Assembly: GCF_016714285.1 (NCBI RefSeq)
Contig: NZ_JADJNN010000012.1
Location: 218,040-282,039 of the forward strand
DNA: 64,000 nt
Direction: 5' to 3'
From: Nannocystis sp.
GTDB lineage: Bacteria; Myxococcota_A; Polyangia; Nannocystales; Nannocystaceae
Position 1 is the stretch's first letter. The number at the start of each line of letters is the position of its first letter. The notes beneath the pieces were generated by a model. The model was not told where the DNA came from. It was given only the letters and a program-made list of their open reading frames with translations, and ran no database searches. A program made the position numbers and the translations under genes. This document shows positions 25,663-26,852 of the stretch, in pieces.

Positions 25663-26736
25663 ATGGACATGCGCGCGGCAGTCGGCACCAGCGGGGTTGA
25701 TTTCCAGAGCGTGCAGAGCGCGCCGTCCGCGGTGGGGGCGTCCTTCGCGGTGGGGGTGCGGCGCCCCGGTCGTGACCTGTGTGAGATCGGGGATCTCGAT
25801 CTCGACGCGACCTGCGAGCTGCTGGCGGCCGCGCGTGCCCTCGTGCCGCTGGCGGCCGGTGACGGGCCGCGCGGGCGAGTGGCGCTGCGCGGCGCGCTGA
25901 TCTTGAGCCTGTTCAACGAGCCGAGCACGCGCACGCGGCTGAGCTTCGAGGTCGCGGCGCGGCGGCTCGGGGCGCAGGTGGTCGACTTCCAGCACGACGG
26001 CGCGAGCTCGGCGGCGAAGGGCGAGACGGAGCTCGACGCGCTGCACAACCTCGACGCGATGGGCTTCGACGCGGCGGTGGTCCGCGACGGGCGCGACGGC
26101 TATCCGCTGTGGCTGTGCTCGCAGCTGCGGGCGCGGGTGGTCAACGCGGGCGACGGCGTGCACGAGCACCCGACGCAGGCGCTGCTCGACGCGCTGACGA
26201 TCCTCGAGGCGTTCGGGCGCGAGCCGGTGCCGGGGGCGCTGGACGGGCTGCGGGTGGCGATCTGCGGCGATCTGCGGCACGGCCGGGTCGGTCGATCGAA
26301 CCTCCGGCTGCTGCGGACGCTGGGGGCGGAGCTGGTGATCGCGGGGCCGGGCTCGCTGGCGCCGGCGGAGCTGGCCCGAGAATTTGGCGTCGGCCTGGCG
26401 CCGGATCTCGACGCGGCGCTGACGGGCGCGCACGTGGCGATGATGCTGCGGATCCAGCGGGAGCGGCTGCCGGCCGACCTGCGCCTGCCCGACGACGCCA
26501 GCTACCACGCGGCCTGGGGTCTCACGCAGGCGCGGCTCGGGCGGCTCGCGCCGGGCGGGGTGGTGCTGCACCCGGGGCCGATGAACCGTGGGGTCGAGAT
26601 CGCCGACGAGGTGGCCGACGGCCCGCGCAGCCGCATCTTGCGGCAGGTGACGCTCGGCGTCGCGGTGCGGATGGCCGTCCTGGCGCGCGCGTGTGGGGTG
26701 TCCGCGGAGACATGTCTCAAGGAGCAGGTGGTATGA
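25663..26736 (+). CDS. pyrB: aspartate carbamoyltransferase catalytic subunit
   Basis: ...LFNEPSTRTRLSFE..., HPTQ and HPGP motifs. GGGAGG RBS; ATG at 25663 or 25669. Confidence 0.88.
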   Translation: MDMRAAVGTSGVDFQSVQSAPSAVGASFAVGVRRPGRDLCEIGDLDLDATCELLAAARALVPLAAGDGPRGRVALRGALILSLFNEPSTRTRLSFEVAARRLGAQVVDFQHDGASSAAKGETELDALHNLDAMGFDAAVVRDGRDGYPLWLCSQLRARVVNAGDGVHEHPTQALLDALTILEAFGREPVPGALDGLRVAICGDLRHGRVGRSNLRLLRTLGAELVIAGPGSLAPAELAREFGVGLAPDLDAALTGAHVAMMLRIQRERLPADLRLPDDASYHAAWGLTQARLGRLAPGGVVLHPGPMNRGVEIADEVADGPRSRILRQVTLGVAVRMAVLARACGVSAETCLKEQVV

Positions 26737-26852
26737 GCGCGGAGTCTGAGGCGGTCCGGTCCTGGTCCGTGCGTGTGGGGTGTCCGCAGGGACATGTCTC
26801 AAGGAGCAGGTGGTATGAGCGCGGAGTCTGCGGCGGGCGCGAGCGATCGGGG
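26689..26852. repeat. 82-bp imperfect tandem duplication spanning the pyrB stop and carA RBS/start
   Basis: 26689-26754 and 26771-26836 are 63/66 identical (gcgtgtggggtgtccgc.g.gacatgtctcaaggagcaggtggtatgagcgcggagtctg.ggcgg). Copy 1 contains the pyrB TGA; copy 2 contains the carA AGGAG RBS and ATG. Confidence 0.85.

Follow-up and report, generated by a model that had tools for sequence, protein, structure and literature searches.

The junction between pyrB and carA, the genes for the catalytic subunit of aspartate carbamoyltransferase and the small subunit of carbamoyl-phosphate synthase, is tandemly duplicated in a Nannocystis genome (assembly GCF_016714285.1, contig NZ_JADJNN010000012.1). 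The window, by which we mean the whole 64,000-nt stretch of DNA that was analysed, has a G+C content of 68–74%. It is very likely that the repeat is an old, local duplication of the junction, originally with a period of 77 nt and now with a period of 82 nt in the window, and that it left both encoded proteins unchanged. The comparisons presented below establish the anatomy of the repeat, its ancestral state, the precedence of the 77-nt over the 82-nt form, its persistence across strains and the integrity of PyrB and CarA. The duplication is small, fixed and confined to its lineage; events of this kind are known, and it constitutes no new mechanism or family. The coordinates of all the features are collected in Table 1.

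The repeat comprises two direct copies of 78 nt each (26677–26754 and 26759–26836) that are identical at 72 positions (92%) with a period of 82 nt. Tandem Repeats Finder reports the same period, with 2.0 copies and a score of 278. The copies are arranged head to tail with no foreign sequence between them, both in the window and in two further assemblies of the species, where the period is 77 nt. The right-hand part of the repeat is the better conserved. Here 26689–26754 and 26771–26836 differ at three positions; these are the two 66-nt stretches, 63/66 identical and 82 nt apart, on which a preliminary description of the sequence was based, and the repeat reaches 12 nt further to the left than they do. 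Within it lies a 38-nt core (CATGTCTCAAGGAGCAGGTGGTATGAGCGCGGAGTCTG) that is identical in both copies and consists of a Shine–Dalgarno (SD) sequence, the ATG and 13 nt beyond it. The core occurs exactly twice in the 64 kb, at 26711 and 26793, where none is expected (100 shuffles). Just upstream of the carA SD sequence there is a 12-nt palindrome, GAGACATGTCTC in copy 1 (26707–26718) and GGGACATGTCTC in copy 2 (26789–26800).

Proceeding from the 5′ side, the functional tail of PyrB is encoded in copy 1 (VLARACGVSAETCLKEQVV), and the pyrB stop codon TGA (26734–26736) overlaps the ATG of that copy. The carA initiation codon lies in copy 2, so that the two genes end and begin in different copies, as the preliminary description had stated. 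The left part of copy 2 is evidently a non-functional relic of the 3′ end of pyrB, and supplies the working SD sequence of carA (26801–26806). The redundant material is thus the intergenic stretch, made up of the right end of copy 1 and the left part of copy 2, and the distance from pyrB to carA is now 78 nt in the window and 73 nt in the other two assemblies. The spare SD–ATG and that of carA have similar predicted accessibility (mean unpaired probability 0.35 and 0.42), in agreement with the earlier proposal that the two sites are equivalent.

Table 1. Features of the pyrB–carA region, in coordinates of the window
Feature	Position	Strand	Basis
pyrB, aspartate carbamoyltransferase catalytic subunit	25669..26736	+	NCBIfam NF002032; P0001 100% identical
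Copy 1 of the 77-nt unit	26677..26753	+	pyrB last 56 nt before ATG, ATGA, redundant carA codons 1–7
Spare translation-initiation site	26719..26735	+	SD AAGGAG 26719–26724, 8-nt spacer, ATG 26733–26735
Predicted frameshifted run-on open reading frame, 651 codons	26733..28688	+	predicted; window only
5-nt insertion at the copy boundary, window strain	26754..26758	+	alignments with L081 and L082
Copy 2 of the 77-nt unit	26759..26835	+	pyrB 3′-end relic 26759–26814, then carA codons 1–7
carA, carbamoyl-phosphate synthase small subunit, 386 aa	26815..27975	+	TIGR01368; orthologues start at equivalent ATG
Conserved syntenic gene, 238 aa	27972..28688	+	gene calls in L081–L094

The species is sampled by three genomes only: the window, GCA_016717175.1 (L081) and GCA_964267895.1 (L082). 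Identity to the window over 11 kb is 99.46% for L081 and 99.35% for L082, most of the differences being single-nucleotide polymorphisms (SNPs), and by this measure the three are distinct strains or samples of one Nannocystis-like species. All three carry the two-copy junction. Because it is present in three SNP-distinct assemblies, and because the two copies have diverged at 6 of 78 positions, a duplication made by an assembler, which the preliminary description had left as an alternative, is dismissed and the duplication is taken to be genuine. In the JGI metagenome collection there was no match for the two-copy pattern or for a species-specific single core; the species is absent from that collection, and so this null result is uninformative on presence/absence polymorphism within the species. 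In L082 a 1-nt deletion (~4613–4631, corresponding to window 26379) splits pyrB into calls of 250 and 98 aa; this is probably an indel error in the metagenome-assembled genome.

The ancestral state can be read from related species. Junction DNA was compared for seven sister lineages, whose PyrB homologues form a series of 94%, 88%, 84%, 81%, 80%, 74% and 72% identity to that of the window. The listed matches of a contig scan with CarA were all ≤56% identical and uninformative for the junction. The gene order TerC, hypothetical, CinA-like, pyrB, carA, hypothetical is kept throughout the sister loci. In four of the seven lineages (L087/L088, L090, L091/L092 and L095/L096, with PyrB proteins P0003, P0007, P0010 and P0011) pyrB and carA overlap by 4 nt as ATGA, and in one (L083–L086, P0002) by 1 nt as TGATG, while in the two most distant the genes are separated, by +2 and +19 nt. 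No local repeat of the junction was seen in the seven, L095 being uninformative in this respect since its locus ends just after the carA start. Aligned across the junction, the sequences of L083–L088 and L090 cover a single unit, and the duplicated unit is collinear with these single-copy relatives. The overlap in the single-copy lineages has the context gtATGAgc, with the stop codon of pyrB placed on the start codon of carA. A single copy in related genomes had been named as the finding that would count against a real duplication; it is found only in other species, where it represents the ancestral state and not an artefact.

The junction of L087 is particularly close to that of the window. 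The sequence GTCCTGGCCCGCGCGTGCGGGGTGTCCGCAGAGACATGTCTCAAGGAGCAGGTGGTATGAGCG is present once, and encodes exactly the PyrB tail of the window (AVLARACGVSAETCLKEQVV followed by the stop codon), which is shared by L087 and L088. The preliminary description had traced the final 15 codons of PyrB to a copied carA initiation region, and had offered, as one possibility, a duplication that remodelled the C-terminus. Neither view is supported: two genomes that have no duplication carry the identical tail, and the tail motif ARACGV(S)x(E)TCL(K/E)(E)Q recurs in homologues of PyrB with as little as ~70% identity. In the overlapped arrangement PyrB was always read across the carA SD sequence, AAGGAG being translated as Lys-Glu of PyrB in the ancestral junction. 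The PyrB tail is therefore native, and the duplication altered no residue of PyrB or CarA. The sister junctions indicate that the ancestor had a single overlapped pyrB/carA junction, which was presumably translationally coupled.

Part of the conservation of this region is independent of the PyrB reading frame. In N. bainbridge PyrB ends earlier (…ACGVELL and stop), leaving the +19 nt gap, and the block AGAACATGTCTGGAGGACC-ATG is non-coding there yet conserved; conservation of the junction must therefore be at least partly at the nucleotide level. The core of the palindrome (ACATGTCT) is conserved across Nannocystaceae junctions (L083–L091), and is also found in N. bainbridge (L094 3506–3524) where it is non-coding: AGAACATGTCTGGAGG. 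This suggests that the palindrome core may have a role as nucleic acid beyond encoding Thr-Cys-Leu of PyrB, for example as a regulator site or as part of the carA leader.

The original unit was evidently 77 nt, the 82-nt period of the window being secondary. It runs from GTCCTGG to GGTGGT, the 56 nt of pyrB that immediately precede the ATG, and continues with ATGAGCGCGGAGTCTGCGGCG, corresponding to carA codons 1–7. Head-to-tail duplication of this unit predicts the novel joint GCGGCG/GTCCTGG. L081 and L082 have GCGACG/GTCCTGG, one substitution away, and the window has GAGGCG-GTCCG-GTCCTGG, with one substitution and five extra bases (the boundary sequence of the 82-nt haplotype is GGTCCGGTCC). 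The extra bases are one of two exact GGTCC units at 26753–26762, with adjacent substitutions at 26749 and 26751. An original unit of 82 nt was rejected, because the inserted bases correspond to neither of the unit's flanks and make up an exact repeat of GGTCC; the insertion in the window is attributed to a secondary slippage event.

Differences between the copies were polarised with the outgroups. In copy 1 two changes are derived, and neither alters the amino acid encoded in the pyrB frame. Three are derived in copy 2, comprising Ala to Val, one synonymous change and Glu to Gly in the old pyrB frame (two of three non-synonymous), all of which are common to the three strains. All five are located in the first 33 nt, outside the SD–ATG core, an arrangement with a probability of ~0.02 under uniform placement. 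Such a pattern is to be expected where the PyrB tail in use is encoded by copy 1, carA is initiated from the right part of copy 2, and the left part of copy 2 is a relic undergoing decay. Parsimony is ambiguous at ancestral carA codon 6 (GAG or GCG) and with respect to gene conversion between the copies. At four-fold degenerate sites of pyrB and carA the divergence is 0.010 between the window and L081, and 0.21–0.24 between the window and sister species. Three fixed changes in a relic of 33–56 nt correspond to ~0.05–0.09 per site on one lineage, which would make the duplication much older than the common ancestor of the three strains and younger than the divergence from the sister species; the numbers are small and this is an order-of-magnitude estimate. 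A recent duplication had earlier been named as one of two alternatives. On the scale of strains it is not recent, given the copy-2 changes common to all of them, and the differences at 5 of the first 33 positions as against 0.010 at four-fold sites between strains.

These observations point to the following sequence of events. In the ancestor pyrB and carA were joined by a 4-nt ATGA, with the carA SD sequence AAGGAG inside the last codons of pyrB (…CLKEQVV and stop). The 77-nt junction segment was then duplicated head to tail. Because each gene end survives intact in one of the copies when a tandem duplication spans a junction, both PyrB, which ends in copy 1, and CarA, which starts in copy 2, remained unchanged. 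The resulting spacer is a 5′-end stub of carA joined to the 3′-end relic of pyrB, by chance in frame in the 77-nt form. The in-frame joint yields a chimeric open reading frame (ORF) of 26 codons, starting on the pyrB stop (ATGA) and stopping on the carA start (ATGA), by way of which ribosomes leaving pyrB could still reach carA. In the strain of the window a later GGTCC slippage would have added 5 nt and shifted the frame of the small ORF, which then remains open for 651 codons.

The preliminary description suggested that the copy-1 ATG would begin a short out-of-frame ORF. This holds only for L081 and L082, in which it opens the 26-codon ORF MSAESATVLVRACGVSAGTCLKEQVV with CarA residues 1–7 fused in frame to the relic PyrB tail, and with ATGA overlaps on the stop of pyrB and the start of carA. 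The 5-nt insertion of the window puts the ORF out of this frame, so that the stop on the carA start is missed. The ORF instead crosses carA in its +2 frame, enters the reading frame of the following 238-aa gene and shares the stop codon of that gene at 28688. The +2 frame of carA has 0–2 stops in all the relatives, a consequence of G+C-rich codon usage. The window has lost the only such stop of L081 and L082 (TGA) through a synonymous change of GCT to GCC at 27018; had the stop been kept the frameshifted ORF would be ~95 codons. Three synonymous SNPs cluster at 27018–27027 in carA. Loss of the +2-frame stop involves a single synonymous SNP, and any meaning for it was rejected in favour of coincidence.

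Gaps of ~20 nt nearly abolish termination–reinitiation, while overlaps of −4 and −1 couple tightly (Huber et al. 2023, PMC10666635). Direct coupling from pyrB to carA across 73–78 nt is thus not expected. A stop/start overlap with an upstream SD sequence exists between the pyrB TGA and the copy-1 ATG; for the copy-1 ORF and carA it is lost in the window through the frameshift. In the 77-nt form the overlaps from pyrB to the small ORF, and from the small ORF to carA, could relay coupling. The 26-aa peptide itself is unlikely to matter; a functional peptide is disfavoured by two amino acid changes and a frameshift between the haplotypes. In the strain of the window the relay would be broken, and ribosomes initiating at the spare ATG would be wasted; its frameshift is a mildly deleterious variant or else an error in the consensus. 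It is doubtful that the chimeric ORF (CarA 1–7 plus the last 19 residues of PyrB) is a naturally evolved coupling relay whose 38-nt core has been kept by selection. If it were, the strain of the window would be a natural relay knock-out, in which ribosomes travel 651 codons, out of frame in carA and in frame in the downstream gene, and coupled overlapping genes would be separable by duplication without loss of coupling, a MIRU-like solution (see below) arising de novo from local sequence. The duplication is most likely a near-neutral relic. A role of the spare ATG as a translated start that passes on coupling is inferred, and so is the view that the whole element is near-neutral and has no regulatory function.

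Errors of assembly could enter at two levels. There might be one true copy of the junction that was doubled by the assembler. The window does contain at least one suspicious 1-nt homopolymer indel elsewhere, and the pyrB of L082 is split by its 1-nt deletion, but two copies are found in three SNP-distinct assemblies and share copy-2 changes in all of them, while artefactual duplications are normally identical; we consider this very improbable. Alternatively the duplication is real and only the GGTCC insertion is erroneous, so that the true strain has the 77-nt form with the 26-codon ORF intact. The short tandem context GGTCC GGTCC TGGTCC, the costly 651-codon out-of-frame ORF that the insertion would make and the other frameshifting indel in the window are all in keeping with such an error. 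Yet the site is not a homopolymer and has two flanking substitutions within 12 nt, it is located in the least constrained sequence of the region, and SNPs of the sort expected of true strain variation make up the great majority of the other differences between the window and L081 or L082. An erroneous insertion is possible though unlikely, and we take the 5 nt to be probably real.

The two other explanations assign the repeat a function or a foreign origin. It might be an adaptive regulatory device, with the small ORF as a leader peptide or attenuator for carA, or with a doubled regulator site at the ACATGTCT palindrome. A short ORF directly upstream of a gene of the pyrimidine and arginine pathways recalls leader-peptide control, and the palindrome plus GGAG, conserved in N. 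bainbridge even where non-coding and now present twice, may act at the nucleotide level. However, a search of Rfam (E ≤ 1, 25000–28500) gave no family, PyrR elements included, and a scan of 25400–27200 gave no sigma-70-like promoters and no intrinsic terminators. The junction folds no more stably than shuffled sequences in either haplotype (z = −0.38 and −0.67). The ORF contains no stretch of regulatory codons, being simply CarA 1–7 joined to the PyrB tail, and is frameshifted in one of the three strains. A leader-peptide or attenuator role is thus unsupported, and an RNA element was rejected on these negative searches; we regard a regulatory device of any of these kinds as improbable. The architecture of the 77-nt form, in which an internal ORF is coupled at −4 nt on both sides, matches that of the MIRU (PMC12548453), and would be explained by the insertion of a mobile intercistronic repeat at the carA start codon. 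But the whole unit is collinear with the single-copy pyrB–carA junction of sister species, and is thus local, and no further copy of the core is interspersed in the 64 kb. Such an element was rejected as the origin since the unit is the pyrB 3′ end and carA 5′ end of the single-copy relatives, and the probability that we leave to it is close to nil.

Several points weigh against an old, near-neutral local duplication with the history given above. It is drawn from three genomes of a species absent from the JGI metagenome collection. An error of assembly may account for the 5-nt insertion, the window having a further 1-nt homopolymer indel in a lipoprotein tail, and the 651-codon junk ORF would be costly if translated. 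The peptide of the small ORF is not conserved within the species, so the relay may not matter, and translation from the copy-1 ATG and the relay are both predictions made from sequence.

Database assignments support the identity of the flanking genes. The pyrB ORF has its first ATG at 25663, and the database protein P0001 starts at 25669; an exact database look-up of the 357-aa PyrB that starts at the first ATG gave no match, as databases place the start two codons later. PyrB scores 309 bits against an NCBIfam equivalog cut-off of 263 (NF002032), and CarA 439 bits against a cut-off of 307 (TIGR01368). The match to the PyrB profile stops at residue 342 of 357 and that to the CarA profile starts at residue 16, whence the repeat touches only the non-catalytic tail of PyrB and the N-terminal extension of CarA. 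An identical CarA protein is called from the same ATG in L081 and L082. The GTG start of the 238-aa gene overlaps the TGA of carA by 4 nt (GTGA) in the window, and a Pfam search with its product gave no match. This gene follows carA in all the relatives examined, with the GTGA overlap or directly adjacent; together pyrB, carA and this gene look like a coupled operon, without pyrC and carB at the locus of the window.

Upstream, the minus-strand lipoprotein gene (~24040–24636; ORF 23951–24682) lacks one 18-nt repeat unit (GCGCCAGCGGGAGCAGCA) in the window relative to L081 and L082. At 24088–24101 the window also has an extra C in a run of C, which shifts the frame of the Pro/Ala-rich C-terminal tail of the lipoprotein. 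The tail is conserved in L081 and L084, and the frameshift in the window extends the ORF into the TerC gene. The extra C reflects a true frameshift or else an error in the homopolymer consensus of the assembly.

Other repeats are present in the window. A 48-nt tandem array at 19721–19917 has 4.1 copies of 95% identity (GCTGGGCCCTCCGGGGTCGGCTTGGAGCTGGCCTTTGGGGCAGGTGAA), followed by degenerate 60-nt units (19868–19979). Further short high-identity arrays are found at 17658–17771 (35 nt × 3.2, 92%), 20523–20582 (13 nt × 4.6), 33463–33532 (13 nt × 5.4, 98%), 42370–42431 (14 nt × 4.4) and 61217–61293 (14 nt × 5.5). Most of the periods are not multiples of three, and so the short arrays may be intergenic repeats resembling variable-number tandem repeats. 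On the minus strand 28689–30230 encodes a 513-aa protein with approximately six 93-nt repeats (29405–30003) of Cys-rich ‘CGDG…E.CDDGN’ modules. These are of the myxobacterial cysteine-rich repeat type, with weak matches to DUF4215 and Fibrinogen_C in orthologues, and are consistent with a myxobacterial origin of the window.

The pyrB–carA junction provides a clean, datable natural example of the separation of a gene pair with a 4-nt overlap in which both proteins are untouched. Duplication frees the tail of pyrB from also encoding the ribosome-binding site of carA. The two natural haplotypes, one in frame and the other frameshifted, make the idea of a relay directly testable. For annotation, the spare SD–ATG and the 651-codon ORF should not be taken as genes, and the C-terminus of PyrB is native.

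The closest known systems are gene pairs with ATGA (−4 nt) stop/start overlaps that are coupled by termination–reinitiation (Huber et al. 2019, PMC6728339; 2023, PMC10666635). The ancestral junction and most of the sister pyrB/carA junctions resemble these, with overlaps of −4 or −1 and the SD sequence inside the upstream gene; in the window the pyrB stop and copy-1 ATG still overlap at −4, and carA is joined to the downstream gene by GTGA. They differ in that the overlap is duplicated in the window and pyrB and carA are 78 nt apart, at which direct coupling is reportedly nearly abolished. Turnover of overlaps by loss or gain of stop or start codons has been described (PMC3887535; Fukuda et al. 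2003, as cited in PMC12548453). The early end of PyrB in N. bainbridge (+19 nt), set beside the clade of the window that reads through the ACATGTCT-GGAG leader to the ATGA, is comparable; the event in the window is a segmental duplication with no point mutation of a stop or start codon, and both termini are untouched.

Mycobacterial interspersed repetitive units (MIRUs) are described in PMC12548453, after Supply et al. (1997), as intercistronic repeats with a small ORF that overlaps the flanking stop and start. The 77-nt haplotype is likewise a short intercistronic tandem repeat with a small ORF that overlaps by 4 nt at both ends. Extra intercistronic sequence need not break coupling in either, because the ends of the small ORF overlap the flanking stop and start. 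Unlike a MIRU, the unit here is neither interspersed nor mobile but is a copy of the local junction present twice, and in the window the ORF does not end at the carA start. There is also a likeness to the synthetic ‘bicistronic design’, mentioned in PMC12548453, in which a leader ORF feeds ribosomes to the downstream gene. The 77-nt haplotype has a short upstream ORF with its own SD sequence that ends on the carA start codon. In this case, however, the arrangement is natural and accidental, its action is predicted, and in the strain of the window it is broken.

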